From contig CANRNF010000003.1 in NCBI GenBank assembly GCA_947631865.1, forward strand, positions 16,595 through 80,594: a stretch of DNA of 64,000 nucleotides. Reading direction: 5' to 3'. Both the position numbers and the translations under genes were made by a program. How positions within the stretch are numbered: position 1 is the stretch's first letter; every line of letters starts with the position of its first letter. This document shows, in pieces, positions 1 through 32,851 of this stretch. This DNA comes from an uncultured Oscillospiraceae bacterium. Its GTDB lineage: Bacteria > Bacillota > Clostridia > Oscillospirales > Oscillospiraceae. The notes below the pieces were generated by a model. It did not search any database. It was given only the letters and a program-made list of their open reading frames with translations, and was not told the origin of the DNA.

Positions 1-1
1 G

Positions 2-574
2 GTGGGGGCGCTGTTCGGGTCTGACGCAGTGTTTTACGCCACCATCCTGTGCATCCCCTTCAACCTGCTGGCATTCACCGTGGGCGTGGATATGCTGGCC
101 GGCGGGGGCAGGCGGGGGAAGATGTCCTGGCGGGACTTTGTGAACCCGGCCATGGTCTCCTCCGTGCTGGCCGTGATCATCACATTTTTGCCGGTGAAGT
201 GGCCCGGGCCCCTGACGGAGGCCGTATCCATCCTGGGCGATATGATACTGCCCCTGTCCATGATCATCATCGGCGCCACCCTGGGGGAGCAGAAGCTGTC
301 CCAGGTTTTTCTGGACTGGCGGGTATACCTGTTTGCCCCGGTGAAGCTGCTGCTGGCCCCGGCCCTGCTGTGGGCCGTGATGGGACTGTTCATAAAAGAC
401 AAGCTCCTGCTGGATACCATCACCGTCCTGGGCGGCATGCCCTGCGCGGCGGTGGCGGCCATGCTGTCCATCCAGTACGGGGCCGACGAACGGCTGGCCA
501 GCCGGGCGGTGGTGCTCACCACGGTGCTGAGCGTGGGGACCATCCCGCTGGTGTGCTGGCTGCTTCTAAGGTGA
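2..574 (+). CDS. AEC (auxin-efflux-carrier/malate-permease-like) family transporter, C-terminal fragment; 5' end outside window
   Basis: The frame is open from the window edge. It contains several hydrophobic TM-like segments and resembles the C-terminal half of AEC permeases. rsmA follows 3 nt later. Confidence 0.55.
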   Translation: MGALFGSDAVFYATILCIPFNLLAFTVGVDMLAGGGRRGKMSWRDFVNPAMVSSVLAVIITFLPVKWPGPLTEAVSILGDMILPLSMIIIGATLGEQKLSQVFLDWRVYLFAPVKLLLAPALLWAVMGLFIKDKLLLDTITVLGGMPCAAVAAMLSIQYGADERLASRAVVLTTVLSVGTIPLVCWLLLR

Positions 575-577
575 GCT

Positions 578-1426
578 ATGGACCTTTGCGACTACAACGA
601 GATGCGCGCCCTTCTGGCGGACGCGGGGTTCCGGTTTTCAAAAAGCAAGGGCCAGAACTTCCTCACCGCCCGCTGGGTGCCGGAGCGCATCGCCGGCGAG
701 GCGGACCTGGGGCCCGGCGACGGGGTGGTGGAGATCGGCCCCGGGGTGGGCTGCCTTACCGAACAGCTGGCCGCCCGAGCGGGCAAAGTGCTGGCCTACG
801 AGGTGGACGAGGCGCTGAAGCCCGTGCTGGCCAGAACGCTCCGAGGCCTTGACAACGTGGAGGTCCTGTTCGCCGACGTGATGGGCCGGGACCTGGCCGC
901 GGACACGGCGGAACTGCTGCCCGGGCTGCGGCACACGGTATGCGCCAATCTGCCCTACAGCATCACCACGCCGGTGTTGACGAAGCTGTATCAGGCGAAA
1001 TGCTTTGACGCTATAATAGTCATGGTGCAAAAAGAGGTGGCCCGGCGGATGTGCGCGGGGGCGGGGGACGGCGATTACGGCGCGTTCACCCTGCTGACCC
1101 AGTGGTATGCTGAGCCGGAGATGCTCTTTGATGTGGGGCCGGAGTGCTTCGTGCCACGGCCGAAGGTGCACAGCGCCGTGGTGAAGCTCACCATGCGCAA
1201 AACGCCCCCTGCGGACGTGGACGAGGCCGTCTTTTTCAAGGTGGTCCGGGCGGCCTTCAACATGCGGCGCAAGACGCTTTCCAACGCCTTGGACGGGCTA
1301 TGCGGCCGGGAGCGGGCCGCCGCGGCCATCGCACACTGCGGCTTTGACGGGAATATCCGCGGCGAAGCACTGAGTTTGGCGCAGTTCGCCGCGCTCACAA
1401 ACGAGATATATTCGAGGGACCTATAA
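578..1426 (+). CDS. rsmA: 16S rRNA (adenine1518/adenine1519-N6)-dimethyltransferase RsmA/KsgA
   Basis: 282 aa with the GQNFL motif, SAM-binding EIGPGVGCLT and the NLPY motif. Confidence 0.92.
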   Translation: MDLCDYNEMRALLADAGFRFSKSKGQNFLTARWVPERIAGEADLGPGDGVVEIGPGVGCLTEQLAARAGKVLAYEVDEALKPVLARTLRGLDNVEVLFADVMGRDLAADTAELLPGLRHTVCANLPYSITTPVLTKLYQAKCFDAIIVMVQKEVARRMCAGAGDGDYGAFTLLTQWYAEPEMLFDVGPECFVPRPKVHSAVVKLTMRKTPPADVDEAVFFKVVRAAFNMRRKTLSNALDGLCGRERAAAAIAHCGFDGNIRGEALSLAQFAALTNEIYSRDL

Positions 1427-1439
1427 GGAGGATGGACAA

Positions 1440-3206
1440 ATGGCATTGACGACCAACAAGCACGTATTGGACTGGGTGCAGCGGTGCGCCGACCTGTGCA
1501 AGCCGGACGAGGTGGTCTGGCTAACCGGGGAAGAGGACGAATTGGAGGCCCTGCGGAAGCAGGCCGTGGAGGAGGGCATCCTCATCAAGCTCAACGAGGA
1601 GAAGCTCCCCGGCTGTTACTATCACCGCAGCGACCCCAACGATGTGGCCAGGGTGGAGGGGCGCACCTTCATCTGCTGCCCCAAACAGGAGGACGCCGGC
1701 CCCACCAACAACTGGATGGACCCGGACGAGATGAAGGAAAAGCTGCGCAAGATCTACAACGGCTCCATGGTGGGCCGGAAGATGTACGTGGTGCCCTATT
1801 CCATGTCCGTGATGGGCTCCCCCTTCGCCAAATACGGCTTTGAGCTGACCGACAGTATCTACGTGGTGCTCAACATGGCCATCATGACCCGCATGGGCAA
1901 GGAGGTCTATGACTACCTGGGCGACAGCCCCGACTTCATCAAGGGCCTGCACGCCTCCGCCGACATGGACCCGGAGAACCGGTACATCGCCCACTTCCCA
2001 CAGGAAAACTACATCATGACCGTGAACTCCGCCTACGGCGGCAACGCCCTGCAGGGGAAGAAGTGCTTCGCCCTGCGCATCGCATCCAACCTGGGCCGGG
2101 CTGAGGGGTGGCTTGCCGAGCACATGCTCATCCTGGGCATCGAAGACCCCAAGGGGGAGGTCACCTATGTCTGCGCCGCGTTCCCCTCCGCCTGCGGCAA
2201 GACCAATCTGGCCATGCTCATCCCGCCGGAGAGCTACCGGAAGAAGGGCTGGAAGTGCTGGACCGTGGGGGACGACATCGCCTGGCTGCGGCCTGGCCCC
2301 GACGGGCGGCTGTGGGCCGTGAACCCGGAGAACGGCTTCTTCGGCGTGGCTCCCGGCACCAGCATGAAATCCAACCCCAACGCCCTGGAGAGCACCAAAA
2401 AGAACACCATCTTCACCAACGTGGTCCTCAAGCCCGACGGCACCGTCTGGTGGGAGGGCATGGACAAGAACCCGCCCACGGATGCCCTGGACTGGAAGGG
2501 CAATCCCTGGGATCCCGCCAGCGGCGTGAAGGGGGCCCATCCCAACTCCCGCTTTACCGCCCCCGCCAAGAACTGCCCCTGTGTCAGCCCCAAGTTCGAC
2601 GACCCCCAGGGCGTGCCTATCTCCGCCATCATCTTCGGCGGCCGCCGGGCCCACACCGTGCCCCTGGTGTACCAGTCGAAGAGCTGGGCCCACGGCGTGT
2701 TCACCGGCTCCATCATGGGCTCGGAGAAGACCGCCGCCGCTGAGGGCCAGGTGGGCGAGCTGCGCCGGGACCCCATGGCCATGCTGCCCTTCTGCGGCTA
2801 CCATATGGCCGACTACTGGCAGCACTGGCTGGACATGGAGAGCAAAATATCCAATCCGCCGAAAATTTTCAACGTCAACTGGTTTCGCATGGACGATCAG
2901 GGCAATTTCATGTGGCCCGGCTTCGGCGAGAACCTGCGGGCCCTGGAGTGGGTCCTGGGCCGCTGCAACGGCACCGCCGGCGCTCAGGAGACCCCGCTTG
3001 GGTATCTGCCCCGGCCGGAGGACATCGACCTGACCGGCCTGGAGGACGAGGTGAGCCCCGAGACCTTGAAGGCCCTGCTCACCGTGGACCCCGCCGACTG
3101 GAAGGAAGAGGTGGAGCTCATCAAGGTCCACTATGCCAAGTTCGGCGACAGGCTGCCCCAAGCCCTCAAGGACTGCCTGGCCGATCTGGAGGCCTGGGTG
3201 GGCTGA
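1440..3206 (+). CDS. pckG: GTP-dependent phosphoenolpyruvate carboxykinase
   Basis: 588 aa with the P-loop FPSACGKTNLAM, colinear with PEPCK-GTP enzymes. SD AAGGAGG lies upstream. Confidence 0.92.
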   Translation: MALTTNKHVLDWVQRCADLCKPDEVVWLTGEEDELEALRKQAVEEGILIKLNEEKLPGCYYHRSDPNDVARVEGRTFICCPKQEDAGPTNNWMDPDEMKEKLRKIYNGSMVGRKMYVVPYSMSVMGSPFAKYGFELTDSIYVVLNMAIMTRMGKEVYDYLGDSPDFIKGLHASADMDPENRYIAHFPQENYIMTVNSAYGGNALQGKKCFALRIASNLGRAEGWLAEHMLILGIEDPKGEVTYVCAAFPSACGKTNLAMLIPPESYRKKGWKCWTVGDDIAWLRPGPDGRLWAVNPENGFFGVAPGTSMKSNPNALESTKKNTIFTNVVLKPDGTVWWEGMDKNPPTDALDWKGNPWDPASGVKGAHPNSRFTAPAKNCPCVSPKFDDPQGVPISAIIFGGRRAHTVPLVYQSKSWAHGVFTGSIMGSEKTAAAEGQVGELRRDPMAMLPFCGYHMADYWQHWLDMESKISNPPKIFNVNWFRMDDQGNFMWPGFGENLRALEWVLGRCNGTAGAQETPLGYLPRPEDIDLTGLEDEVSPETLKALLTVDPADWKEEVELIKVHYAKFGDRLPQALKDCLADLEAWVG

Positions 3207-3242
3207 GAAAAGCAAGTTCACTTTCTTAACAATAAAGAAAAG

Positions 3243-3272
3243 CCCCGTGACCGCAATGGTCACGGGGTTTAT
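3243..3272 (+). terminator. Rho-independent terminator after PEPCK gene
   Basis: Stem CCCCGTGACC/GGTCACGGGG with a 5-nt loop, followed by TTTAT. Confidence 0.7.
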
Positions 3273-3561
3273 ACCTGGGCTCCTGTGGGAAAAAGGAGAA
3301 TCAAAGTGTTCTCCCGTATCCCGAAACAGGTTGGCAGCGAAACAAAGCCGCGGCGAGGGCGCTTGCAACTGAGCCGGCGACTTGAGCGTGACCTGTTTCG
3401 GAAAAGAAGAAAGGCCTCTGACCGATGGAGGAGCCTCGCTTGCGAGGATCTGACATCTTCAGAGGTCTTTCGGCGTGGTGGGGGTGTTCTTATAGGATCT
3501 CGTAAGAAATTCCCTATTTTCAAGGGCTTGCGGGCAGGCACACAGCGATATTTACCGATTA

Positions 3562-3855
3562 TCAGCCCACATTCTCCGCCAGAATGCCCTCTTCATAGAG
3601 AGCCTCCGGGGCGATATCTATATCCCCGTCGCACCACACTGCCGTGCCATAGTCGATATAAACGCCTTTAAACACGTCCATATCCGCCAGCGGCGCAAAG
3701 GCAGGCATTTTCAGCAAGGGCTTAAAGTCGAACACTTTTGCCTCGCCTGTGCTGAACCGGACCCACAGCTGGTGATCGTCCATTGGCCGGACGCCGGATA
3801 CGCTCACTGTATGCGAGGGCACACCAGCATAGGCGATCCCATCCATAATATACAT
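3562..3855 (-). CDS. DUF2442-like small protein
   Basis: 97 aa. SD AAGGAG lies 6 nt upstream. It is paired with a DUF4160-like gene, an arrangement typical of this two-gene cassette. Confidence 0.55.
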   Translation of the reverse strand: MYIMDGIAYAGVPSHTVSVSGVRPMDDHQLWVRFSTGEAKVFDFKPLLKMPAFAPLADMDVFKGVYIDYGTAVWCDGDIDIAPEALYEEGILAENVG

Positions 3856-3866
3856 ATCGATCTCCT

Positions 3867-4133
3867 TTACTGCAGCGGCGCTATCTTGCCAAACGGGATA
3901 CCGCGTACCGCGTTGTTCCAGGCGGCATAGAGTTCATCCTCGTGGATAGCTGCCCATGCCTGAACAAGTTTGAGCTGCTTCACGGGCAAACTGCCAGCCA
4001 GAAGCTCCCCATCTATACCAACAGACGCCTCATATTCCGCGTACAACACATGAAAGTGAGGCTTGTTGTGCTGTCCGTCGTCCATGTAGATCATCTTGAT
4101 GACAATGTTGTAGAACCGGCAGAGCTCTGGCAT
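3867..4133 (-). CDS. DUF4160-like small protein
   Basis: The sequence MPELCRFYNIVIKMIYMDDGQHNKPHFHV matches the DUF4160 N-terminal signature. ATG at 4133 follows SD AGAGGTGG. The track ORF starts 3 codons earlier at a GTG. Confidence 0.6.
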   Translation of the reverse strand: MPELCRFYNIVIKMIYMDDGQHNKPHFHVLYAEYEASVGIDGELLAGSLPVKQLKLVQAWAAIHEDELYAAWNNAVRGIPFGKIAPLQ

Positions 4134-4250
4134 CACGACCACCTCTTTGATTTATATCCTGCCGCAGTATTGCCGTTTTCCCAGATATCGTATAAGCCAG
4201 ATGAACCGATTATAAGGTAAATGCCCGGGAACTGTAAGTTCCCGGGCATT

Positions 4251-4339
4251 TGGTGCGCGAGGCGGGAGTTGAACCCGCACGCCCGAAATGAGCACTAGAA
4301 CCTGAATCTAGCGAGTCTGCCAATTCCACCACTCGCGCA
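4251..4339 (-). tRNA. tRNA-Leu, anticodon CAG, CCA encoded
   Basis: The reverse complement folds as a cloverleaf. The acceptor stem is TGCGCGA/TCGCGCA and the anticodon stem CTAGA/TCTAG carries loop TTCAGGT. There is a long variable arm and a T-arm GCGGG-TTCAACT-CCCGC. Confidence 0.93.
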
Positions 4340-4564
4340 TATATCTGGGGCGCTTTCCTGAGCGCCCAGTAATAATACCATCAATTCAGGGGATTGTCAA
4401 TCAAAATTTGCGATTTTTCCGTTTTTGGTGGCGCATCGGAAAAGCGCGGGGACATATCCTTGCCGGCCGGGTGACGAAGACGCTCCTGATAAGGCGGGGC
4501 AGACTCTGTCAGTGGACCGACAGCCCATGGATGGGGCCTTTTCTCCAGCGGCGCGGATAGCGAG

Positions 4565-4632
4565 AAAGTCAGGTTTGGTTTCGTAAAAGTCAGTGCGCAC
4601 CCGTTGCGGAAAGCAGACTGGCATAGTAAAAT
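4565..4632 (+). promoter_or_regulatory. LytTR-type direct-repeat box R1 plus -10 (TAAAAT) upstream of M13 peptidase 1
   Basis: AAAGTCAG occurs at 4565-4572 and again at 4586-4593, a 21-bp phasing. TAAAAT lies 33 nt downstream of the second repeat. Confidence 0.6.
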
Positions 4633-4681
4633 GATCACAGTAGGGCGGCGGCCATCCGCTGCAGAAGGGAGAACATAGATC

Positions 4682-6700
4682 ATGAGAGCAAAGCGCATAC
4701 TGTCCCTTGTCCTGGCGCTGGTGATGGCGCTGGGGTGCAGCGGTACGGCTTTCGCCGCGGAGGAGGACGACGGCGTCCTGAACTTTTTGCCGGAGACCAA
4801 GCCCGCGCCGGAGGACGACCTGTACGGGTATGTGAACTTCGACATCCTGCAGGGCAAGGAGATACCGGTGGGCCATTCCTCCTGGGATGGGTTCACTGAA
4901 AACGACCTGGAGATCACTGAAGAACTCAACGCGATGCTGGACGAGTATGTGGCCAACGCCAGGACCTACGAGAAGGGGACGCCGGAGCAGAAGATCGCGG
5001 ACCTGTACCTGTCCTATGTGGACGAGGAAAGCCGCAACGCCACCGGCATCGAGCCCCTGCGGCCCTATCTGGACGCCATCAATAACGCCGGGACCGTTCA
5101 GGAGTATGTGGAGGCCATCGCCACGCTGGACGGAGAGCTGGGCTATGGAAGCCTGCTGTCCACCAGCATGGAAACGGACCTTTACGATTCCACCCGCTAC
5201 GCCGCTATTATAAGACAGGCGGACCTGGGACTGGGAAAGGCATACCTGGAGGACGAGAGCATGTCCTCCTACTGGGATATCTATAAGACCTTGGTCACGA
5301 AGCTGTTCGTGCTGTACGGCCTGAGCGAAGAGGAGGCCGCCGAAAAGGCCGGGGACGTCTTCACCCTGCAGACAAAGCTGGCCGCGTCCACGCTGTCCGA
5401 GGCGGAACTGTACGACTATTCCAAGTCGTACCAGCCCAAAAGCCTGGACGAGGTGGCCGCGCTGCTGCCCACCGTCGATATGGGGCCGGTGCTGGAGGCC
5501 TTCGGGCTGAGCGGGACAGAGCGGTTCCTGGTGATGGACGTGGGGCAGCTGGAGGCCGTCGGCCAGGTGCTCACGGAGGAGAACCTGCAGCTTTTGAAGG
5601 ATTTCTCCACCGCCACGCTGCTGAAGGATATGGCATCTTACCTTAGCATGGACTACCGGCAGGCAAAGCAGGATTACTCCTCAGCCCTGAATGGCGTCAC
5701 TCCCAAGGAACTGTCGGAGGCGGCCAAGGACTCGGTGGAGTCGAACCTGAAATGGGAGTTTGCCAAGCTCTACGTGGAGAAATACTTCCCCGAGGAGAGC
5801 AAGCAGGAGGTCCTGGATATCGTCGATGAGATCGTGGCCTGGTTCTACGGGCGCATCGACGAGCTGGACTGGATGGGCGATGAGACGAAGGCGGCCGCCA
5901 AGAAGAAGCTGGACACCCTGACGGTGAAGATCGGCTACCCCGATAGCTATGATTTCGTGGCGTATCTGGATGATGTGGAGTATGTCTCCCCGGCGGACGG
6001 CGGCAGCCTCATCGAGAACAAGATGGCTCAGTGGCGTACCGAGGCTGCGTTCAGCCACAGCCAGGTGGGCCAGGAGGTGGACAAGTCCGCCTGGGGCATG
6101 ACGCCTCAGACCGTGAACGCCTACTATGACCCCGCCGCCAACGAGATCGTATTCCCCGCGGGAATCCTCCGGGGCGTGTTCTTCGATCCGGACGCCAGCC
6201 GGGCGGCCCATCTGGGCTCCATCGGCGCGGTCATAGGCCATGAGCTGACCCATGCCTTCGACAGCTCCGGCGCCCAGTTTGACGAGAACGGCAACCTGAA
6301 TATGTGGTGGACCGAGGAGGACTACGCCAACTTCACGGCTCTGCAGCAGAAGGTCATCGACTACTATGACGCTTTTGAGGTGATGGACGGCGTCACTGTC
6401 AACGGCGAACTGACCCTTGGGGAGAACATCGCCGACCTGGGCGCGGTGCACTGCGTTACGGAGCTGTGCGGGGACGACCCGGAGGCCCTGCGGGAGCTGT
6501 TCACCGCCTGGGCCAGGTCTTGGGTCCTCGTGGAGACCCGCGAGAAATTTGATAAGCTGATCCGCACGGACGTCCATTCCCCCAAGGTGGCCCGCGTCAA
6601 CGCGGTGGTCAGCGCCACCGACGCCTTCTATACGGCCTATGACGTGCAGGAGGGCGACGGCATGTACGTGGCCCCTGCCGACCGGGTGGGCATCTGGTAA
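4682..6700 (+). CDS. M13 family zinc metallopeptidase (PepO/neprilysin-like) lipoprotein, copy 1
   Basis: 672 aa with lipobox MALGC, HELTHAF (HExxH) and GENIADLG (ExxxD). Confidence 0.88.
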   Translation: MRAKRILSLVLALVMALGCSGTAFAAEEDDGVLNFLPETKPAPEDDLYGYVNFDILQGKEIPVGHSSWDGFTENDLEITEELNAMLDEYVANARTYEKGTPEQKIADLYLSYVDEESRNATGIEPLRPYLDAINNAGTVQEYVEAIATLDGELGYGSLLSTSMETDLYDSTRYAAIIRQADLGLGKAYLEDESMSSYWDIYKTLVTKLFVLYGLSEEEAAEKAGDVFTLQTKLAASTLSEAELYDYSKSYQPKSLDEVAALLPTVDMGPVLEAFGLSGTERFLVMDVGQLEAVGQVLTEENLQLLKDFSTATLLKDMASYLSMDYRQAKQDYSSALNGVTPKELSEAAKDSVESNLKWEFAKLYVEKYFPEESKQEVLDIVDEIVAWFYGRIDELDWMGDETKAAAKKKLDTLTVKIGYPDSYDFVAYLDDVEYVSPADGGSLIENKMAQWRTEAAFSHSQVGQEVDKSAWGMTPQTVNAYYDPAANEIVFPAGILRGVFFDPDASRAAHLGSIGAVIGHELTHAFDSSGAQFDENGNLNMWWTEEDYANFTALQQKVIDYYDAFEVMDGVTVNGELTLGENIADLGAVHCVTELCGDDPEALRELFTAWARSWVLVETREKFDKLIRTDVHSPKVARVNAVVSATDAFYTAYDVQEGDGMYVAPADRVGIW

Positions 6701-6721
6701 AGGCAGGAGAACTTTCATCGG

Positions 6722-6757
6722 AAGAGGCCATTCCTGTACGGGGACGGCCTCTTTTCG
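6722..6757 (+). terminator. Rho-independent terminator after M13 peptidase 1
   Basis: Stem AAGAGGCC/GGCCTCTT followed by a T-run. A near-identical structure follows copy 2. Confidence 0.6.
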
Positions 6758-6780
6758 CCCGGGCCGGATGGGGATCGCGT

Positions 6781-6849
6781 AAAAGTCAGGTTTGATTACG
6801 AAAATGTCGGCCCTGCCGCATTGAGAAACTCCGTCGGGTATGATAAAAT
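6781..6849 (+). promoter_or_regulatory. LytTR-type direct-repeat box R2 plus -10 upstream of the response regulator/kinase operon
   Basis: AAAAGTCAG at 6781-6789 and AAAATGTCGG at 6801-6810; the GTCAG/GTCGG cores are 21 bp apart. TAAAAT at 6844-6849 lies 33 nt after the second repeat. Confidence 0.6.
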
Positions 6850-6975
6850 TAACTTGGAGAGATGTTTTGAAGAGAACGGTGTGTATGTGCGGCCGGTTCA
6901 TTGATCCTTTATGGCCCTAATGGAGCGCAGGTGGTATTCATTAGGACATAAGGCCCGCTGTGAGGAGGTATGTCT

Positions 6976-7707
6976 ATGCGGATCGCGGTCTGCGACGATG
7001 ACCTGCGGGAGATGGAACAATTTGAGGACGCCCTGCAGGGATGGGACCCGACCAGGAAAGCGGAGAAGTTTATGGACGGCGCTTCGCTGCTGGAGGCGGC
7101 CAAAGACGTACCCGGCTTCGATATCGTGTTTTTGGACATCTACATGCCAGGAGAAAACGGCGTTGACATCGCGAAGCGGCTGCGGGAGATATCGCCTGAG
7201 ACGGGTATCGCCTTCGTCACCACCAGCACGGAGCACGCGGTGGAGGCGTTTTCCCTGCACGCGCTGCATTATCTTGTCAAGCCGGTGACGACCAGGGGCG
7301 TGGTGGAGGCCTTCCGGCGGCTGACGGAGATCCGGAAAAGTCAGCGGGAGCGGATATCGTTCGCTGTCGGCACGAACCGGATCACGGTGTTTCTGGATCA
7401 AATCTGCCTGCTTGAAAACGACAACCATGTGGTGAACGTCTCCCTGTCCGACGGACGGCGGCTGAAGGTATGGATGAGCTTTGGCGAGCTGGAGCGAAAG
7501 CTGAGCGGGAGCTTTTTGCGTATCAACCGGGGGATCATCGTCAATATGGACTATATCGCCCAAATGGGGGCTGACACCTGTACCCTGCGGGACGGGAGCC
7601 GGCTGCCCATCGCCGTACGGCAGAGCGCTGCCATCCGCGCGGCCTATGACGACTATGTGTTCGACCAGCTCTCCCGGCGAAAGAGCTTTTCGGAGGTACA
7701 GCCATGA
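6976..7707 (+). CDS. LytTR-family (AgrA/ComE-like) response regulator
   Basis: The receiver domain shows CDDD, FLDIYMPGENG and LVKP. A C-terminal LytTR DNA-binding domain follows. ATG 6976 lies 7 nt after GAGGAGG; an alternative ATG is at 6970. Confidence 0.88.
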   Translation: MRIAVCDDDLREMEQFEDALQGWDPTRKAEKFMDGASLLEAAKDVPGFDIVFLDIYMPGENGVDIAKRLREISPETGIAFVTTSTEHAVEAFSLHALHYLVKPVTTRGVVEAFRRLTEIRKSQRERISFAVGTNRITVFLDQICLLENDNHVVNVSLSDGRRLKVWMSFGELERKLSGSFLRINRGIIVNMDYIAQMGADTCTLRDGSRLPIAVRQSAAIRAAYDDYVFDQLSRRKSFSEVQP

Positions 7708-9089
7708 GCGTGGGCGTGTATCTGCGTAACGCGGCAGGCTTCTTTCTCGAGATATTCCCCTGCGTGATGTTGGTCTTCCTGCCCTTTTCGGAGGAGTCGT
7801 TCCGCTTTCACAGAAAGCGCGTCCTTCTCGGGGAGGCGGCCGCGGTAACGGTGCTGTCGGCTCTGTTCCCGGCGGCGATGTACGCCGCGGCGCAGCGGGA
7901 CATGGCGGTGGCCGCCAATATCTTCATGGGCGCCGTCATATTGCTCACGCTCATCGCGCAGGGCTGGCTGATACGGGAGGCCCCGATCAAGAAGACCATG
8001 GCCGTGTTCGCGGTGGTATTTTACGGCGTGACACAGTACTGGCTGGTGAACATGCTGATCGGCGCCGTGTCCGGGCTGGTCCCGCTGTCTCAGGAACTGG
8101 AGAACTGGTCGGTATATTCCCCCTGCGGGCTGGCGATGTACGCGGTCACGACGGTGATCCTGCTGCCGCTGATGCTCCTTCTGGTGATCCAGCCGCTGAG
8201 CGAGTATCTCCAGGAGATAGAGACAAAAAAGATGCGCCAGGAGTTCTTTATCCTGGCGGCGACCACGGTGGTATTCCTTCTGCTGGTCATGGCGGCTGAC
8301 ATCAGCTACTATCGTGTGGGGTACCGGGCGTATCACCGGGAACTGCCCCAGCTTCTGGTGGCGCTGATGGACCAGCTGGCCATCTATTGGCTGATCTTCC
8401 GGGAGTCCGTGTGGCGCAAACGGGACAGCGACCACCAGCGGGCTCTGGAGATACAGCAGCTCCAATATGAAAAGATCGTCAGCGATATGGAGAACACCCG
8501 GCGGATGAGCCATGACCTGCGCCACCACTACAGCTCTCTGAACGAGATGCTTCAGGACGGCAGGCTGGATGAGATGAAGCGCTATCTCTCCCAGGTGCTG
8601 GACGACAACGCCAAGCGGATGAACGAGGTCTACTGTGAGGACATGGCGGTCAACGGGCTTTTGCAGTACTACGCGGGCGTCGCCCGGGCGGAGGGGATAC
8701 GCTGCGACATCCAGGCCCAGTGCGACAACGTGACCATCGCCCCCACGGATCTGACGGTGGTGTTCGGCAACGCCATGGAAAACGCCGTCAACGCCTGCCG
8801 GAAGTGCGGCCAGGACCGGTGGATCCTCGTGCGCGTCGGCACGGTGCAGGGTTCGCTGGCCATCGAGATATCCAACGCCTGCAGCGGCGTGTGCATCAGC
8901 CGCCGGGAGCAGACCGAGGATGGCTTCCTGCCCGCGGAGGCGTTTTTGAGTGAGCGGGCCAACGGCGGGTACGGCCTGCGCAGTATCGCCCAGACCGCCC
9001 AGAAATACGGCGGCAGCGCCAGGTTCCGGTATGACGCCGGGGAGGATACGTTCACATCCCGTATCCGGTTGAATATGCCCACGGAATGA
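7704..9089 (+). CDS. AgrC/ComD-like (HPK10-type) membrane sensor histidine kinase
   Basis: 461 aa with about 6 N-terminal TM segments. It has an H-box SHDLRHH, an N-box FGNAMENAVNA and a G-box GGYGLRSI. An ATGA overlap couples it to the regulator gene. Confidence 0.85.
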   Translation: MSVGVYLRNAAGFFLEIFPCVMLVFLPFSEESFRFHRKRVLLGEAAAVTVLSALFPAAMYAAAQRDMAVAANIFMGAVILLTLIAQGWLIREAPIKKTMAVFAVVFYGVTQYWLVNMLIGAVSGLVPLSQELENWSVYSPCGLAMYAVTTVILLPLMLLLVIQPLSEYLQEIETKKMRQEFFILAATTVVFLLLVMAADISYYRVGYRAYHRELPQLLVALMDQLAIYWLIFRESVWRKRDSDHQRALEIQQLQYEKIVSDMENTRRMSHDLRHHYSSLNEMLQDGRLDEMKRYLSQVLDDNAKRMNEVYCEDMAVNGLLQYYAGVARAEGIRCDIQAQCDNVTIAPTDLTVVFGNAMENAVNACRKCGQDRWILVRVGTVQGSLAIEISNACSGVCISRREQTEDGFLPAEAFLSERANGGYGLRSIAQTAQKYGGSARFRYDAGEDTFTSRIRLNMPTE

Positions 9090-9115: not shown

Positions 9116-9152
9116 CGGCCCTTTCGCCGCGCTGGATCGTATAAAGAGACAG
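9116..9152 (+). promoter_or_regulatory. Conserved bipartite promoter-like element P1 (CGGCCCTTT-N13-CGTATAAAGAGACAG)
   Basis: One of five copies with an invariant 13-nt spacer and an upstream A/T tract. It lies 68 nt upstream of the A1 start. Confidence 0.55.
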
Positions 9153-9205
9153 CACGGCAGTTCGGAGCCGTAAAATAAACACCAATTTTTAAGGAGGAAA
9201 AAACC

Positions 9206-9388
9206 ATGTCCGAAGAGAAGAAGAACGAAGTCCAGGAGCAGAACGAGCTGAACGAGAACGATCTGGACGGCGTGTCCGGCGGCGCCTTTGCCGAGGTAAA
9301 CCCGCTGAGCATGGGCCGTAATGTCCTCAGGACCACTGAAGACGGAAGGGCTGACGGCCCCATGACCAGCCGCTCCAACATTCGGTGA
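9206..9388 (+). CDS. A1: GG-leader peptide, Cys-free 34-aa core; candidate signalling peptide
   Basis: MSEEKKNEVQEQNELNENDLDGVSGG|AFAEV... SD AAGGAGG lies upstream. The gene sits directly downstream of the kinase. Confidence 0.7.
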   Translation: MSEEKKNEVQEQNELNENDLDGVSGGAFAEVNPLSMGRNVLRTTEDGRADGPMTSRSNIR

Positions 9389-9422: not shown

Positions 9423-9629
9423 ATGATGAACGTAAACACCATGGACACCCGGCTCAGGGCGCTTTTTGACCGCCAGAGGAAGGTCAGCGATCCGCGCATG
9501 GCGCGGCTCATCGGGGAGACAGAGACCCGGTGGGGCGCGCCCATCGCGGACGACGACCTGGGATCGGTGGCGGCGGCGGGCGACCCGGACGCAGGCCAGA
9601 GAAAAACACCCTGGGATGAGCGCAGATGA
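9423..9629 (+). CDS. Hypothetical 68-aa protein translationally coupled to the sigma factor gene
   Basis: SD GGGAGGA lies upstream. Its stop overlaps the sigma start (ATGA). No family was recognised. Confidence 0.5.
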   Translation: MMNVNTMDTRLRALFDRQRKVSDPRMARLIGETETRWGAPIADDDLGSVAAAGDPDAGQRKTPWDERR

Positions 9630-10099
9630 TGGACGGGGAAGAGCTGTACCTGCGGTACAGGGATAAGGTCCTGGCCTATATCCGCGCCAGGGTGGAAAAC
9701 GAACAGGACGCGGAGGACCTTTGCTCCACCGTCTTTATGAAGGCGTGGGCAAACCTGCCGGATTATGACGGGCAGAGGTCCTCTGTCTCCACATGGCTTT
9801 TTTCCATCGCCCACAACGCGATCATCGACTTTTACCGCGGCCGGCGGCCGGCGGCCGAATTGGACGAGACGGTGCCGGCCCCGGAGCGGGACCCGGAACT
9901 GGAGGCCCTGGCGGAGGCGCTGGAGGCCCTGCCGGAGCGGGAGCGGGACGTGATCGTGCTGTACTACTACCACGGACTGACCCTGAAGGAGATCGCGGTC
10001 CACATGCGCCTTGCCTACAGCACGGTGAAGCTCTGCCACAGCCGGACGCTGGAGGCGCTCAGACAGATGATGGGCGGAACAGAGGCCCTGAAGATATGA
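9626..10099 (+). CDS. Sigma-70 family, ECF-like RNA polymerase sigma factor
   Basis: 157 aa containing only region 2 (DAEDLCSTVFMKAW, STWLFSIAHNAIIDFYR) and region 4 (LPERERDVIVLYYYHGLTLKEIA). Confidence 0.85.
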   Translation: MMDGEELYLRYRDKVLAYIRARVENEQDAEDLCSTVFMKAWANLPDYDGQRSSVSTWLFSIAHNAIIDFYRGRRPAAELDETVPAPERDPELEALAEALEALPERERDVIVLYYYHGLTLKEIAVHMRLAYSTVKLCHSRTLEALRQMMGGTEALKI

Positions 10100-10132: not shown

Positions 10133-10429
10133 ATGGAGCAGAAAGTGATCGAGGAATTCCTGGAAAAGGCGAAGCAGGCAAAGAGCCCGGAGGAGATCAA
10201 GGCCGCCGCGAGGGCGTGCGGTCTGGAGCTGACGGCGGAGAAGCTCACGAAGCTGGACGGCGCGCTTTGTGGAGCGAAGGGCGAGCTGTCCGACGAGGAC
10301 CTGGACGGCGTCGCCGGCGGGAAGCAGAACCTGGAGTATGGCACCCCTGAGTTTTGGCACTATGTAGACGAACAGATCCAAAAATACGGACCGAGTGTCG
10401 TCCCCGCTTTGATGGCGACCTATATGTAA
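10133..10429 (+). CDS. N1: Nif11-like-leader GG precursor, Cys-free core
   Basis: MEQKVIEEFLEKAKQAKSPEEIKAAARACGLELTAEKL...ELSDEDLDGVAGG|KQNLEYG... matches the Nif11 leader architecture. Confidence 0.8.
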   Translation: MEQKVIEEFLEKAKQAKSPEEIKAAARACGLELTAEKLTKLDGALCGAKGELSDEDLDGVAGGKQNLEYGTPEFWHYVDEQIQKYGPSVVPALMATYM

Positions 10430-10482
10430 TAAACGCAGAAGACGCTAGCGGGGGACATACATAGTAAAGGGGAGGCACTATC

Positions 10483-10716
10483 GTGGACGACAACGAGAAC
10501 AAAAAGAGCGGTGAAGAGCTGGCCGACGAGGCCCTGGACAAGGTGGCCGGCGGCGGGTTAATGCGTAAGCCATGCTGCTTTATATGCGGTCGGGACGACA
10601 TTCCCCTGGGAGAGGGTTCCTACCGTGCGGCGGATTATGGAAGATCCATTTCCTATATCTGCGAGGCTTGCTTAAAATCCAACTACGGCCCGGAATGGAC
10701 ATGGCGCAAACTTTGA
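10483..10716 (+). CDS. A2: short-GG-leader precursor, zinc-ribbon-like core (class i)
   Basis: GTG start after AAAGGGGAGG. Leader (M)DDNENKKSGEELADEALDKVAGG; core has CFIC...YICEAC. Confidence 0.8.
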   Translation: MDDNENKKSGEELADEALDKVAGGGLMRKPCCFICGRDDIPLGEGSYRAADYGRSISYICEACLKSNYGPEWTWRKL

Positions 10717-10749
10717 TGGCCGGGTGACCCGGCAGAGAGGAGAATTATC

Positions 10750-11055
10750 ATGGAGCAGAAGAAGATCGAGGAATTCGTGGAAAAAGCGAAGCAGGCCAAG
10801 AGCCCGGAGGAAGTGGAGGCCGCAGCGAAGGCGTGCGGGGTGGAGCTGACGGCGGAGAAGCTCGCGAAGCTGGAGAAATCCCTCCGCGGAAAGAAGGGCG
10901 AGCTGTCCGACGAGGAGCTGGCCGGCGTTTCCGGCGGGGCGGTGGATCCGAGCACGACCGATTGGCTCGCTGAGCAGCTCGTTGAGCAGTTCAAAGAGCA
11001 GATCAAAGACCTCGACCCGGAATTCTTGGAATTGCTGAAGCTGGCTTTGTCCTGA
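10750..11055 (+). CDS. N2: Nif11-like-leader GG precursor, Cys-free amphipathic core
   Basis: Its leader is nearly identical to N1. ...ELSDEELAGVSGG|AVDPSTTDWLAEQLVEQFKEQI... Confidence 0.8.
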   Translation: MEQKKIEEFVEKAKQAKSPEEVEAAAKACGVELTAEKLAKLEKSLRGKKGELSDEELAGVSGGAVDPSTTDWLAEQLVEQFKEQIKDLDPEFLELLKLALS

Positions 11056-11078
11056 AAGACGGGAACAGGAGAAACGAC

Positions 11079-11345
11079 ATGGACAACAGCGAGAACAAAA
11101 AGAGCTACGAGGAACTGGCCGACGAGGCATTGGACAAGGTGGCCGGCGGTGGCTGGGAATGGCTATGGGGAGACTCATCGCCCAGAGTGACCCCATGCGG
11201 CATTTGCCGCGGAACTGAGGAGCAAGCTATATTATATACGATCGATTTCGGCAACGGCGGCAGCTCCGGGATGTACTTGTGTTCCAAGTGCCTCGCGGAC
11301 GAAAGGAAAAAATATAAAGTGACCGAAGGCTGGGGCGGGAAATGA
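11079..11345 (+). CDS. A3: short-GG-leader precursor, zinc-ribbon-like core (class i)
   Basis: Leader MDNSENKKSYEELADEALDKVAGG; core has PCGIC...YLCSKC. Confidence 0.82.
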   Translation: MDNSENKKSYEELADEALDKVAGGGWEWLWGDSSPRVTPCGICRGTEEQAILYTIDFGNGGSSGMYLCSKCLADERKKYKVTEGWGGK

Positions 11346-11399
11346 CGTGCGCGGAATTGTCCGAAGGCTGCCATTGCTGACGAAAGGAAAGGAAGAGCT

Positions 11400-11618
11400 A
11401 TGAATCAAGACGAAAATAAAAAAAGCGTTGAAGAACTGGCGGACGAGGCCTTGGACGCGATAACGGGCGGGAAGAGGGATGAATACGTACGCCCCACGGT
11501 CACCTGTCCCAAGTGCCATCAGCAAAAAGAGAGGCTGGTGACATGCCGTGACCCGAAGGATCCGACAAAGCGTGAGTCCATGTGCCCCGACTGTGCCCGC
11601 GATCTCGGGTATGTGTGA
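11400..11618 (+). CDS. A4: short-GG-leader precursor, zinc-ribbon-like core (class i)
   Basis: Leader MNQDENKKSVEELADEALDAITGG; core has CPKC...MCPDC. Confidence 0.8.
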   Translation: MNQDENKKSVEELADEALDAITGGKRDEYVRPTVTCPKCHQQKERLVTCRDPKDPTKRESMCPDCARDLGYV

Positions 11619-11650
11619 TGACCGTCCCGGACGGAGAAAGGAGAGACATC

Positions 11651-11863
11651 ATGGAAAACAGCGAGAACAAAAAGACCCCGGAAGAGCTGGCCGACGAGGC
11701 GTTGGACAAGGTGGCCGGGGGGGAGTACGGTGGGGATTTTGTTGTACTCAACTGCAGATCCTGCCGCCACCATAACAATGACTGTCCCTACGGAACTCCG
11801 CTGGGTGCCGTGTTAGAATTGAAACCATCGTATTGGACACTGTGCCCAAGCAAGGAGGCTTGA
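11651..11863 (+). CDS. A5: short-GG-leader precursor, class ii Cys core
   Basis: Leader MENSENKKTPEELADEALDKVAGG; core has NCRSC...DCPY...LCP. The internal ATG is preferred over the track start 11582 because of the SD and the leader alignment. Confidence 0.78.
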   Translation: MENSENKKTPEELADEALDKVAGGEYGGDFVVLNCRSCRHHNNDCPYGTPLGAVLELKPSYWTLCPSKEA

Positions 11864-11866
11864 CCG

Positions 11867-12112
11867 ATGAACGACAGCGAGAACAAAAAGAGCGGTGAGG
11901 CCTTGGCCGACGAGGCGCTGGAAAATGTGTCCGGGGGGAGCGACGATGTTTTTTTTACAATTATAAGTTTTAGGAACAATTTTAAAAGCAGAAACAATTG
12001 CACGTCCTGCAACAGCTATTACAGGAGCAACTGTCTGCTAAAGCTTACTGTTGAAGGACTCTACGATAAGTTTAGCGGGGACAATAACGCGATGTGCCCT
12101 TACAAGACGTAA
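11867..12112 (+). CDS. A6: short-GG-leader precursor, class ii Cys core
   Basis: Leader MNDSENKKSGEALADEALENVSGG; core has NNCTSC...NC...AMCPYKT. The core DNA is locally AT-rich. Confidence 0.78.
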   Translation: MNDSENKKSGEALADEALENVSGGSDDVFFTIISFRNNFKSRNNCTSCNSYYRSNCLLKLTVEGLYDKFSGDNNAMCPYKT

Positions 12113-12138
12113 GACAGGGCCGAAAGGAGAAAACGGAC

Positions 12139-12378
12139 ATGAGCGACAGCGAGAACAAAAAGACCCCGGAGGCCCTGGCCGACGAGGCGCTGGACGCGGT
12201 GGCCGGCGGGAGCAGCAGATTTGACGCGCTCCTTAAGGGGGGAGCCTGCGCGGACTGCCCACGGATCGACGAGAGCGTTCATATGTATGATGTGATATTC
12301 GACGGCAGCAGCATGTCCATCTATCTCTGTCCCGATTGCGTTGCCAAACGCCGCCAAAGAGGACAAGTGGTTCGGTAA
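12139..12378 (+). CDS. A7: short-GG-leader precursor, zinc-ribbon-like core (class i)
   Basis: Leader MSDSENKKTPEALADEALDAVAGG; core has CADC...YLCPDC. The start at ATG 12139 is chosen by SD and leader alignment. Confidence 0.8.
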   Translation: MSDSENKKTPEALADEALDAVAGGSSRFDALLKGGACADCPRIDESVHMYDVIFDGSSMSIYLCPDCVAKRRQRGQVVR

Positions 12379-12406
12379 GCGCGCAGACAGCGGAAAGGAG
12401 AGCGAC

Positions 12407-12682
12407 ATGAACGATAGCGAGAATAAAAAGACCCCGGAGGAGCTGGCCGACGAGGCGCTGGAGAAGGTGTCCGGAGGCGGGCTCTCCTGGGGCGGCCTTG
12501 TACTACCGGACCCGCTGGAGGACATTTTCGCTGAGAAGTGCCATAAGTGCGGGAAAAAGCCCGGTCGGCAGTATACCCTGTACTATCCGACGCCGTTCGG
12601 CCCCAGGATCGAGACCTGCTGCGACGACTGCGCCGAACTGTTCAGACAAACGTATGGAGGCGAAGCGATCCCCGTCGACTGA
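12407..12682 (+). CDS. A8: short-GG-leader precursor, zinc-ribbon-like core (class i)
   Basis: Leader MNDSENKKTPEELADEALEKVSGG; core has CHKC...CCDDC. Confidence 0.8.
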   Translation: MNDSENKKTPEELADEALEKVSGGGLSWGGLVLPDPLEDIFAEKCHKCGKKPGRQYTLYYPTPFGPRIETCCDDCAELFRQTYGGEAIPVD

Positions 12683-12709
12683 CGGCAGACAGCGGAAAGG
12701 AGAACGACT

Positions 12710-12961
12710 ATGAATGATAACGAGAACAACAAGAGCATGGAGGCTCTGCCCGACGAGGCCCTGGACAAGGTGACCGGCGGTGATGGATTGACATATCTGC
12801 CTTTCAAGATCCCATGCCACAGGTGCCCCAGATGTGACGAGACCGTGATGTATTATACGATCAAAGACGAAAGCGGTGGGTACGGGATGAACCTGTGTCC
12901 CGACTGCGTCGCGGAACTCAGGAAAGATCATACGGTGTACGAAGGCTTTCATCTATTCTGA
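12710..12961 (+). CDS. A9: short-GG-leader precursor, zinc-ribbon-like core (class i)
   Basis: Leader MNDNENNKSMEALPDEALDKVTGG; core has CHRCPRC...NLCPDC. Confidence 0.82.
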   Translation: MNDNENNKSMEALPDEALDKVTGGDGLTYLPFKIPCHRCPRCDETVMYYTIKDESGGYGMNLCPDCVAELRKDHTVYEGFHLF

Positions 12962-12981
12962 CGCCGGGAAAGAGGACGACA

Positions 12982-13172
12982 GTGAATAACGAACGCAAAC
13001 GTGTACCCCCCGAAGCGCTGGACGACGATGCCATGGACAGGGTCGCCGGGGGAGGATCACTCTCAGACGGACAGGGGTTCTACCACTGTAAAAACTGCGG
13101 TGCGCAGTTCACAAAAACCAGATCGTGTATGGCCGCCGTCTCAGCTGCCCCAGCTGCGGGGCATGGCTGTGA
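12982..13172 (+). pseudogene. A10: frameshifted GG-leader precursor (class i); single-A deficit in A5 run at 13113-13117
   Basis: GTG start, (V)NNERKRVPPEALDDDAMDRVAGG...FYHCKNCGAQFTK. With one more A the frame reads NQIVYGRRLSCPSCGAWL-stop at 13172, parallel to A11. As written the frame runs on into A11. Confidence 0.65.
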
Positions 13173-13202
13173 TATAAATGATTATATAAGGGGAGAACGA
13201 AC

Positions 13203-13391
13203 ATGGATAACAACGAGGACAAAAAGAGCGGTGAAGAGCTGGTGGACGAGGCGCTGGACAGGGTCGCCGGCGGGAGAATATACCAAGACAGACACGGGAT
13301 CCTCTACTGCGATAGCTGCGGTGCGTCTTTCCTGGCAGAACACCTCCAGACTATGCGCCGTCTCCACTGCCCCTACTGCGGGGCGGAATAA
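13203..13391 (+). CDS. A11: short-GG-leader precursor, zinc-ribbon-like core (class i)
   Basis: Leader MDNNEDKKSGEELVDEALDRVAGG; core has YCDSC...HCPYC. Confidence 0.8.
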   Translation: MDNNEDKKSGEELVDEALDRVAGGRIYQDRHGILYCDSCGASFLAEHLQTMRRLHCPYCGAE

Positions 13392-13424
13392 CATTCACAA
13401 ACTGCTGTGGTAAGGAGATATGAC

Positions 13425-14201
13425 ATGAAGCGGAGCGCGGGATACTTTATGGCGCTGGCCCTGACGGCGGCGCTCATCCTGGGCGCGGCCACGCCGGCGC
13501 TGGCGGCGGAGAATTTTTCCGACGAGATGAAATTCGACGACGGGGCCGATATCAGCCCCGCTGACGGCGCGGACAGCGTGGAGCGGGCGGGGGACCACGA
13601 GGACAGCCCCTACTTCCGCCACCCGGATTTTTATAACATGACCTCCACCGACAGTCTGACCATCCTGACGAACTTCAAGACCATACAGCAGTCCAGCGAG
13701 TGGAGCTGCGGCGTGGCCTGCGTGCTGATGACGCTGGAGTGGTACGGCCTGCGGGGGGACTACGACGAGGAGAGCCTGGCTCAGCTGCGGCCCCAGGGGA
13801 TGGAGCCCGTGGCTACCACCATGAGCCAGATGGTGGGCCTTTTTGATTCAGTAGGCGGCTTTGATTGCTACTCCGCCATCGACGCGGGGGAGGACGCGGC
13901 GGATATCTTCACTTTTGATTACATCCAGGAGACCCTGGCGAACGGCGACCCCATCATCATCGGCTGGAACGACTGGGGCGCCCACTGGCAGATCATCATC
14001 GGCTACGACGACATGGGCACCGAGGTGACCCAGGACGACGTGATCATCGTGGCCGACCCCTATGACACCACCGACCATGACCAGGACGGCTACGGCATCT
14101 ATCCCGCCGAGCGGTTCCTGTATAACTTTACATTCTACGATTACTTTGACGAGGGCGAGCTGAACGACATGTGCTTCCTCGTCGCCAGACCCGCGGCCTG
14201 A
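13425..14201 (+). CDS. Secreted papain-fold, C39-like cysteine peptidase
   Basis: Signal peptide MKRSAGYFMALALTAALILGAATPALA. The order Q..SSEWSCGVACVLM ... GAHWQIIIGYDD ... ADPYD matches the Gln/Cys/His/Asp layout of C39-type peptidases. SD AAGGAG lies 7 nt upstream of ATG 13425. Confidence 0.6.
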   Translation: MKRSAGYFMALALTAALILGAATPALAAENFSDEMKFDDGADISPADGADSVERAGDHEDSPYFRHPDFYNMTSTDSLTILTNFKTIQQSSEWSCGVACVLMTLEWYGLRGDYDEESLAQLRPQGMEPVATTMSQMVGLFDSVGGFDCYSAIDAGEDAADIFTFDYIQETLANGDPIIIGWNDWGAHWQIIIGYDDMGTEVTQDDVIIVADPYDTTDHDQDGYGIYPAERFLYNFTFYDYFDEGELNDMCFLVARPAA

Positions 14202-22800: not shown

Positions 22801-22837
22801 CGGCCCTTTGGGCTTTCTGAAACGTATAAAGAGACAG
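22801..22837 (+). promoter_or_regulatory. Conserved bipartite promoter-like element P2
   Basis: CGGCCCTTT-N13-CGTATAAAGAGACAG, 37 nt upstream of the A13 ATG. Confidence 0.55.
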
Positions 22838-23120: not shown

Positions 23121-23138
23121 AGATGAAGGGAGGCAGAG

Positions 23139-23405: not shown

Positions 23406-23433
23406 GAAGGAGCAGCGGTAAAAGGAGAAGGCT

Positions 23434-25363: not shown

Positions 25364-25383
25364 GACCGAAGGGAGAGCAAACT

Positions 25384-25629: not shown

Positions 25630-25645
25630 TGAAGGAGGCGCCGTC

Positions 25646-32839: not shown

Positions 32840-32851
32840 GAACGAGCAAGC

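Follow-up and report, generated by a model that had tools for sequence, protein, structure and literature searches.

Several described systems place peptide signaling under the control of regulators with the LytTR DNA-binding domain. In the class II bacteriocin regulons, several operons carry LytTR boxes, and those of the regulatory and transport operons are the most similar (PMC2714321). The promoters that these regulators control have two 9-bp repeats separated by a 12-bp spacer and located directly 5′ of the −35 element (PMC2714321). In the Fsr system of Enterococcus faecalis, the LytTR regulator binds 5′ of its own locus and of the adjacent secreted zinc protease gene, gelE, whose product (gelatinase) processes the ef1097 product (PMC5454873). 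Zinc peptidases of the M13 family have been linked to signaling as well: PMC9173638, citing Underhill 2019 and Wilkening 2016, reports that PepO restricts two pheromones, XIP of S. mutans and SHP of S. pyogenes, and the same paper describes streptococcal pepO as not induced by the signaling system (PMC9173638). Here we describe a 64-kb stretch of DNA (the window) from a rabbit-gut Oscillospiraceae bacterium, in which two copies of a 2.3-kb cassette each carry an M13 peptidase gene (M13a and M13b) flanked by predicted binding sites (boxes) for a LytTR regulator encoded in the same locus.

The locus resembles the pln, blp, and com regulons in its box architecture, its candidate double-glycine-leader signal, and its peptidase-containing ATP-binding cassette (ABC) exporter. 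It differs from them in its high-GC Oscillospiraceae host and in having an extracytoplasmic function (ECF) sigma tier, an apparent partner-switching module, cargo peptides with Nif11-type leaders, and an exporter of the NHLM type (TIGR03796). Nor are the pln, blp, and com promoters embedded in a duplicated 2.3-kb gene cassette, as they are here. The Fsr-GelE system has LytTR sites 5′ of its own locus and of a neighboring secreted zinc protease gene, an arrangement predicted here too. However, GelE is an M4 thermolysin-type enzyme rather than an M13 peptidase, an AgrB-type enzyme makes the Fsr signal, which is a cyclic lactone rather than a double-glycine-leader peptide, and Fsr has no duplicated cassette. 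The PepO enzymes of streptococci and lactococci share with M13a and M13b the M13 family and a proposed signal-limiting role. Streptococcal PepO is not known to have a signal peptide, whereas the genes described here encode one, are duplicated and preceded by predicted LytTR boxes, and are not pepO orthologues. The original prediction had invoked the degradation of streptococcal pheromones by M13/PepO enzymes; this precedent is on record in the paper cited above, but the analogy is loose, for the peptidase family is the same and yet streptococcal pepO is not signal-induced (PMC9173638).

Our literature searches returned no report linking M13 peptidases to LytTR regulation or to bacteriocin immunity. 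Judged from the DNA, what is new in this locus is that a duplicated cassette with its own promoters places an M13 gene within a predicted LytTR regulon. We favor a reading, to which we give a probability of roughly 45%, that combines an old duplicated cassette, a derived insertion of cargo genes, and signal-induced peptidases that would turn over peptides of the locus. Its structural and evolutionary part (an old duplicated cassette with gene conversion) is very likely, and the specific role of the M13 enzymes in pheromone turnover is a tentative proposal.

Two Colinear Copies of a Box-M13-Terminator-Box Cassette

A blastn comparison of the window with itself identified a direct repeat between positions 4644–6808 and 30103–32267 (2,179 nt aligned at 84.9% nucleotide identity, E = 0). 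It also linked box 2 (6777–6816) to box 3 (30006–30046) through another match of 41 nt. Global alignment placed the limits of homology at 4557–6849 (copy A) and 30003–32308 (copy B), that is, from approximately 8 nt 5′ of the upstream box to the −10 hexamer of the downstream promoter. Each copy contains, in the same order, a 29-nt direct-repeat box, an M13 gene, a terminator hairpin, and a second box with its promoter, and 23.2 kb lie between the two. The copies are colinear beyond the coding sequence on both sides (5′ untranslated region or UTR, terminator, both boxes, and −10), as expected of a segmental duplication. Thus, the original prediction of colinear segments at 4565–6849 and 30010–32308, each with a box, terminator, second box, and −10, was right to within a few bases, and similarity is not confined to the M13 genes. 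These genes, expected to be approximately 80% identical, align without gaps over 672 codons with 84.3% nucleotide and 79.2% amino acid identity. Fourteen identical runs of at least 30 nt join the copies, the longest of 50 nt. The unconstrained spacers have diverged, those between box and −10 to near randomness. The colinear and homologous terminator and 5′ UTR argue for block duplication or conversion rather than convergence.

An assembly artefact or chimera was ruled out, as several samples, assembled independently, and a separate metagenome-assembled genome (MAG) all contain both copies with their distinct flanks. We saw no integrase or transposase gene adjoining the cassettes, and the flat GC profile (56–67%) gave no signature of horizontal transfer for the core between the copies or for copy B.

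The 64 kb contain exactly four occurrences of the box pattern, AAAGTCAG-N13-AAArTCrG (4565, 6782, 30011, and 32241), always on the + strand, a count reached by none of 100 shuffles. An extended alignment revealed that each of the four boxes repeats a 15-nt unit (TTnCGnAAAnGTCAG) at a 21-nt period, which matches the 9-12-9 architecture of LytTR-regulated promoters. All four promoters have one geometry: two 15-nt units, a 10-nt gap, a −35 of the form TTGnnn, a 17-nt spacer, and a −10 of the form TAnnAT. Box 1 (4565–4593, + strand), the predicted LytTR site 5′ of M13a, has two direct repeats with the 21-nt period (AAAGTCAGGTTTGGTTTCGTAAAAGTCAG) and is followed after 10 nt by the M13a promoter core (4604–4632, + strand; −35 TTGCGG, 17-nt spacer, −10 TAAAAT). 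This promoter was read directly from the sequence because its weak −35 escaped the consensus promoter scan; its geometry matches that at the other three boxes. The remaining boxes came from the pattern search and their promoters from the promoter scan, all on the + strand. Box 2 (6782–6810) precedes the promoter of the regulator operon (6821–6849; TTGAGA, 17 nt, TAAAAT, with a TG before the −10). Box 3 (30011–30039) starts 24 nt after the stop codon of the second MATE gene (MATE2) and precedes the M13b promoter core (30050–30078; TTGAAC, 17 nt, TATTAT). Box 4 (32241–32269) precedes the promoter (32280–32308; TTGAGG, 17 nt, TAAAAT) of an operon for export and, apparently, partner switching.

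As colinear parts of the cassettes with identical geometry, the promoters 3′ of boxes 2 and 4 are paralogous, as had been proposed for the regulator and export operons. A candidate cognate regulator is the product of the first gene after box 2 (6970–7707), which has Response_reg and LytTR domains. Furthermore, box 1 is retained in the orthologous loci of three relatives (L013, L007, and L014) despite diverged flanks. The M13 genes are the only ones that boxes 1 and 3 could serve, and the exact geometry of these boxes is kept in four loci. Each M13 gene thus has its own box, conserved across species, and both genes are predicted to be signal-induced.

Folding identified a terminator hairpin after each M13 gene, both on the + strand. 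That of M13a (6721–6754) has an interrupted 14-bp stem followed by UUUU, and that of M13b (32179–32214) a 14-bp stem followed by UUUUUU. The short T run or interrupted stem left both uncalled by the consensus terminator scan, but they are clear on folding; the folding z-score was −2.2 for copy B only, and copy A did not differ from shuffles. A further 7-bp hairpin lies in the 5′ UTR of M13a just 5′ of the ribosome-binding site (4645–4662, + strand; GCGGCGG-CCAU-CCGCUGC), with a counterpart in M13b (30104–30121, + strand; GCGGCGG-UCAU-CCGCCGC). It is present in all close M13 homologues (L007, L008, L009, L011, and L014), including those that have no LytTR box, and it varies on both sides of the stem (GCGGCGG/CCGCUGC, GCAGCGG/CUGCUG). 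This hairpin may be an mRNA-stabilizing or translational element.

Two Predicted Extracytoplasmic M13 Endopeptidases

The M13a (4682–6700, + strand) and M13b (30141–32159, + strand) genes encode 672-aa M13 zinc endopeptidases with intact catalytic motifs; for M13b, we took as start the ATG at 30141 and not the upstream TTG of the mechanical open reading frame. Both match the Pfam families Peptidase_M13_N and Peptidase_M13 at full length (289 and 177 bits for M13a, 284 and 172 bits for M13b; cut-offs of 32 and 24.5). Chains of M13 enzymes in the PDB match residues 38–672 at E = 1.7e-94, and structures named 'Endopeptidase PepO' match at E = 3e-86. The two translations contain HELTH, GENIADLG or TENIADLG, VNAYY, and DVHSP or DTHAP. 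We take HExxH and ExxxD (ENxADxGG) to bind zinc, NAYY to bind the substrate, and the downstream histidine to be catalytic. The best NCBIfam model is PepO, but scores of 339 and 366 bits are far below its equivalog cut-off of 1000, and the two proteins are therefore not PepO orthologues.

Both N-termini are signal peptides with an L-G-C(C) motif, which every close homologue keeps. The signal peptide ends in ...LVMALG-C, where A occupies −3 and L occupies −2; this fits a relaxed lipobox pattern only, outside the strict form that we used as criterion ([LVI][ASTVI][GAS]C), and an AFA|A signal-peptidase I site follows. Whether secreted or, as the original prediction had it, lipid-anchored, M13a and M13b are predicted to be extracytoplasmic.

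Divergence between the paralogues is concentrated in patches (approximately residues 52–80, 148–180, 255–290, 446–470, and 601–650) that evolve fast in all lineages. In every pair compared, the ratio of nonsynonymous to synonymous divergence (omega) was 0.45–0.65 in the patches vs. 0.13–0.32 elsewhere. We rejected positive selection on the patches, as omega never exceeded 1 and the fast evolution is not specific to the paralogue pair. The last patch (601–650) may overlap the S1′ wall region, which we offer as a lead only.

Age of the Duplication and Gene Conversion

Close relatives of the M13 proteins (71–98% amino acid identity) were found only in MAGs of rabbit-gut Oscillospiraceae and matching ENA assemblies; the next relatives were at 55% and then 45%. 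In the M13 tree, copy A groups with L013, L007, L014, L008, L011, and L009 (A clade), and copy B with L006, L092, L010, and L012 (B clade). Two MAGs each have one A-clade and one B-clade copy. The MAG Lapin-001__bin25, at a synonymous divergence (dS) of 0.05–0.19 from the window, has both copies in the same two contexts. The dS between copies A and B is 0.32, alongside 0.44 for A vs. L007 and 0.40 for B vs. L010. Because the two clades are common to several species, these values indicate that the duplication predates the divergence of those species. The omega values (0.44 for A vs. B and 0.16–0.27 for close orthologue pairs) show that both M13 genes are under purifying selection.

In L007 and L014, which are from other species, a single box-M13-terminator-box unit with the same promoter geometry precedes the regulator gene, and the same order through to the regulator is found in L013. 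We infer that a single cassette before the regulator gene is the ancestral state. Other relatives have lost the boxes: the M13 gene lies among glycoside hydrolase genes in L008 and L011, with a degenerate half-box downstream, and adjoins an ABC gene in L010 and L012, with a different terminator. The retention of M13 in these regulator-less relatives shows that the enzyme has value outside this signal circuit. Near the more distant M13 loci (Enterocloster, Hungatella, Bacteroidota, and others), we found no LytTR regulator or box. The stand-alone B-type loci L010 and L012 have flanks that are 93–94% identical and M13 genes that are only 80% identical, and the L012 gene has lost approximately 62 residues in frame between two DLY motifs. 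This discrepancy is due either to decay or to allele replacement.

Duplicated tuf genes are a paralogue pair homogenized by gene conversion. Like such pairs, the cassettes are direct repeats several kilobases apart that keep their own flanks and have a mosaic phylogeny with discrete conversion tracts; unlike them, homogenization is weak and patchy, and overall divergence is 16%. In a quartet of copy A, copy B, L007, and L010, 66 of the 100 informative sites outside codons 231–375 back the A/B split but only 1 of 36 inside, a contrast reached by none of 500 permutations. In this segment (5372–5806, + strand), copies A and B are mutual closest relatives, and regional trees place copy A and L013 with copy B, L006, and L092 in these codons only. 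The central conversion is older than the split of the window lineage from Lapin-001. A second tract of 45 nt covers the copy A terminator (6707–6751, + strand). Here, copy A equals copy B and the B copy of L006 at 15 consecutive variable sites, unlike the orthologous A copy of L013, and an 11-nt indel shows the same pattern. Sites of the A type flank the tract (79 vs. 11 in the last 600 nt of the gene; 16 vs. 3 from box 2 to the −10; Fisher p = 4e-9). Most simply, this tract reflects a short, recent conversion from B to A in the window's own lineage. The two tracts indicate that occasional gene conversion has kept the copies partly alike.

Proposed Interposition of the Cargo Block

Two relatives have compact forms of the locus. 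L092 (ENA ERZ27249596 NODE_5173, positions 1–6502; approximately 91% nucleotide identity to the window) has, in order, the first MATE gene (MATE1), a B-type M13 gene, the terminator, a box, the candidate pheromone gene, the gene for a 67-aa protein, the sigma gene, STAS98 (the first gene of the export operon), and the MatE-HATPase gene. L007 has a box, the M13 gene, a box, the regulator and kinase genes, remnants, STAS98, and the rest of the operon. The remnants (L007 positions 14569–14851) correspond to the upstream region of the pheromone gene (window 9118–9175) and the 3′ end of the sigma gene (window 9993–10071), so the pheromone gene, the 67-aa gene, and most of the sigma gene were lost in L007, and the cassette, regulator, and kinase were kept. 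In both relatives, the sigma gene (L092) or its remnant (L007) abuts STAS98; in the window, approximately 22.4 kb (10.1–32.5 kb) separate them, with copy B last. By parsimony, this suggests that the cargo block and copy B are a derived insertion between the sigma gene and the export operon.

In the proposed history, the cargo block and copy B would have been interposed at this point, possibly by differential loss after the regulatory module had been duplicated in tandem. The promoter 3′ of copy B (box 4) would then restore, or keep, the displaced export operon under the same regulator.

The L092 locus has further peculiarities. Its M13 gene has a sigma-70-like promoter in place of box 3, its single box abuts the −35 directly, without the 10-nt gap present elsewhere, and no regulator, kinase, or cargo gene lies in between. 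We considered whether this contig was a chimera formed at the repeated box and rejected it: such a chimera would be joined to the regulator gene instead of the pheromone gene, and L007 independently has a matching sigma-STAS98 junction.

Proposed Signal Turnover and Its Alternatives

The candidate signal is a 60-aa double-glycine-leader peptide (9206–9388, + strand) with a predicted mature form of 34 aa that is linear and free of cysteine (AFAEVNPLSMGRNVLRTTEDGRADGPMTSRSNIR). Its gene follows those for the LytTR response regulator (6970–7707) and a GHKL histidine kinase (7704–9089), the first genes after box 2 (6970–9089, + strand; domain search). The 67-aa protein and the ECF-type sigma factor (9626–10099) come next. 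In the favored reading, the exported double-glycine-leader signal would activate the kinase and the regulator, and all four promoters would fire. The cell would then raise its output of regulator and exporter and produce two extracytoplasmic M13 peptidases. These would most likely degrade exported linear peptides of the locus, the 34-aa candidate pheromone first, and the degradation would provide negative feedback or signal turnover. The diverged paralogues probably differ in substrate preference. The closed chamber of M13 enzymes prefers short unstructured peptides, so the cysteine-free 34-mer fits better than the longer, cysteine-rich cargo, with cores of 35–67 aa. Thus, we favor signal turnover, with surface immunity and maturation as rivals.

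Several points weigh against this interpretation. The boxes are assigned to the regulator of the locus by their architecture, position, and conservation, and M13 homologues persist in relatives without regulator or boxes (L008, L011, L010, and L012). The stand-alone context of the B clade might itself be ancestral, in which case the flanks of copy B would derive from conversion rather than from whole-block duplication. Likewise, the order of events (insertion of cargo vs. deletion in L007 and L092) is drawn by parsimony from two relatives only. Finally, patch omega values of 0.45–0.65, never above 1, leave adaptive divergence in specificity unproven.

The M13 enzymes could instead confer self-protection or resistance, being co-induced to destroy the cell's own or its neighbors' related peptides at the cell surface. 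The predicted co-regulation of the M13 genes with approximately 20 exported double-glycine-leader peptides is in keeping with such a role, as are the two diverged paralogues with their fast-evolving patches and the retention of M13 in relatives from which regulator and boxes have been lost, a pattern reminiscent of orphan immunity genes. However, the cargo peptides have no known antimicrobial activity, and their cysteine-rich cores are probably folded, whereas an M13 chamber generally favors short unstructured substrates. With no literature link of M13 enzymes to bacteriocin immunity or LytTR in our searches, we regard immunity as unlikely. Similarly doubtful is a broader proposal that joins both ideas. 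The cassette would be a portable unit of LytTR double-glycine loci, in which the induced surface M13 enzyme destroys the cell's own pheromone or toxins, a timer or immunity arm undescribed for such loci. Carrying an outward-facing inducible promoter and recombining with its paralogue, the cassette would also let large cargo blocks insert or swap while the distal export operon stays under quorum control.

Another explanation is that M13a and M13b are general nutritional or housekeeping oligopeptidases and that the boxes serve the neighboring operons, being alike through shared function rather than block duplication. Stand-alone homologues with ordinary sigma-70-like promoters (L008, L011, L009, L010, and L012) and the near-random divergence of the box-to-−10 spacers between copies are compatible with this. 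Yet boxes 1 and 3, with exact geometry in four loci, can serve only the M13 genes, and the two copies have colinear, homologous terminators and 5′ UTRs, which makes this explanation improbable. We consider it more improbable still that the enzymes mature the exported pheromone or cargo by trimming after leader removal, as gelatinase does with the enterocin O16 precursor in the Fsr system of Enterococcus faecalis (PMC5454873). The gene for an extracytoplasmic C39-like peptidase in the cargo (13407–14201) shows extracellular processing to be plausible in this locus. Against maturation, positive feedback by this route would need the cassette wherever the signal is made, but L092 has no upstream box; L007 keeps the cassette though its pheromone and sigma genes are deleted; and cleavage of double-glycine leaders by the transporter normally yields the mature peptide.

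Stability of the 23-kb Core

The original prediction also held that the repeats could excise or amplify the intervening core by homologous recombination. The inventory that it gave for this core (LytTR regulator, kinase, ECF sigma, peptide arrays, Sel1, Fic, and two MATE genes) was found in full. As for recombination, the two conversion tracts show that the copies do exchange sequence. Predicted junctions of deletion (DUF4160-M13-STAS98) or amplification (MATE2-M13-regulator), on the other hand, were in none of the 12 related contigs, which come from low-coverage short-read metagenome assemblies where rare events would escape. Eight of these contigs keep MATE2-M13b-STAS98 and four keep DUF4160-M13a-regulator. 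A search of metagenome contigs for further close relatives returned nothing above 46% identity, so this survey consisted of exact-protein look-ups only.

Nor are the repeats young and ready to excise the core. These old paralogues (dS of 0.32) belong to separate clades that are common to other species, and their longest identical run is 50 nt. A divergence of 16% cuts RecA-dependent exchange by orders of magnitude. Active excision or amplification by reciprocal recombination, with population heterogeneity as its outcome, is therefore very improbable even though the repeats are direct, 2.2 kb long, and rich in identical runs (14 of at least 30 nt), gene conversion between them did occur, and the architecture of the locus differs among relatives (L007 and L092): overall identity is 84%, the survey found no junction, Lapin-001__bin25 retains both copies in place despite its dS of 0.05–0.19 from the window, and the breakpoints of L007 and L092 lie outside the M13 genes. 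These compact forms differ from what recombination between the repeats would be expected to produce.

The Surrounding Locus

The locus is a two-tier peptide system. Besides the candidate signal, at least 20 small genes encode double-glycine-leader peptides (10133–13391, 22860–23700, 25121–26233, and 44478–45242). In most of them, the leader is M(D/N)xSENKKSxEELADEALDKVAGG and the core contains two CxxC pairs, which we read as zinc-ribbon-like; three peptides have Nif11-type leaders (TIGR03798, above cut-off). The cargo also includes genes for the secreted C39-like peptidase, a 987-aa protein, Sel1-repeat proteins, Fic, and the two MATE proteins. A 36-nt motif (GGCCCTTT..GGAnCGTATAnAGAGACAG) occurs five times (9117–9152, 22802–22837, 25063–25098, 44419–44454, and 46621–46656): one copy lies 5′ of the candidate pheromone gene, three precede the arrays at 22.8, 25.1, and 44.4 kb, and the last is at 46.6 kb. 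The locus ECF sigma factor probably uses this promoter type, which would form a second tier below the LytTR boxes.

The operon 3′ of box 4 (32543–44399, + strand) encodes a STAS anti-sigma antagonist (STAS98), MatE-HATPase, GH3, SpoIIE-HATPase, and STAS-APH proteins, a 158-aa protein, the exporter, and a second ABC subunit. The peptidase-containing exporter (NHLM_micro_ABC1) scores above the TIGR03796 cut-off. Several of the proteins encoded between 32852 and 39488 are unusual fusions: MatE with HATPase_c_2 (anti-sigma kinase-like), SpoIIE phosphatase with HATPase_c_2, and STAS with an APH-type kinase, alongside the GH3-family adenylating enzyme. Together with STAS98, the fusions look like a partner-switching module attached to the export system.

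Two further positions in the locus vary. Where the window has the Fic gene (26299–26904), Lapin-001__bin25 and one ENA contig have an unrelated 290-aa gene instead (L085/L088, 3336–4208), and a degenerate box-like sequence (AAAGTCAGGCTTGATCACAGAATCGTCAG) lies near this position in L006 and L087. The Fic position appears to be a variable slot of the cargo block. Directly 5′ of box 1, a DUF2442/DUF4160 gene pair (3562–4142, − strand) is found in all contigs of this strain; it was not detected 5′ of M13a in L013. This pairing is typical of small toxin-antitoxin-like modules.

Significance

The four boxes constitute the predicted regulon of this LytTR system and can be used as such in genome annotation. 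The repeat that contains them is an ordinary old paralogous duplication with gene conversion rather than a sign of instability. The relatives provide comparative data on how a large bacteriocin-like locus appears to grow, with cargo interposed within an operon and a duplicated promoter cassette restoring control. If the favored reading is true, this would be a peptide quorum-sensing circuit with an M13 endopeptidase inside the regulon, encoded behind the regulator's own sites and exposed outside the cell. It would also be an example of signal-induced signal destruction in an uncultured lineage of gut Clostridia.

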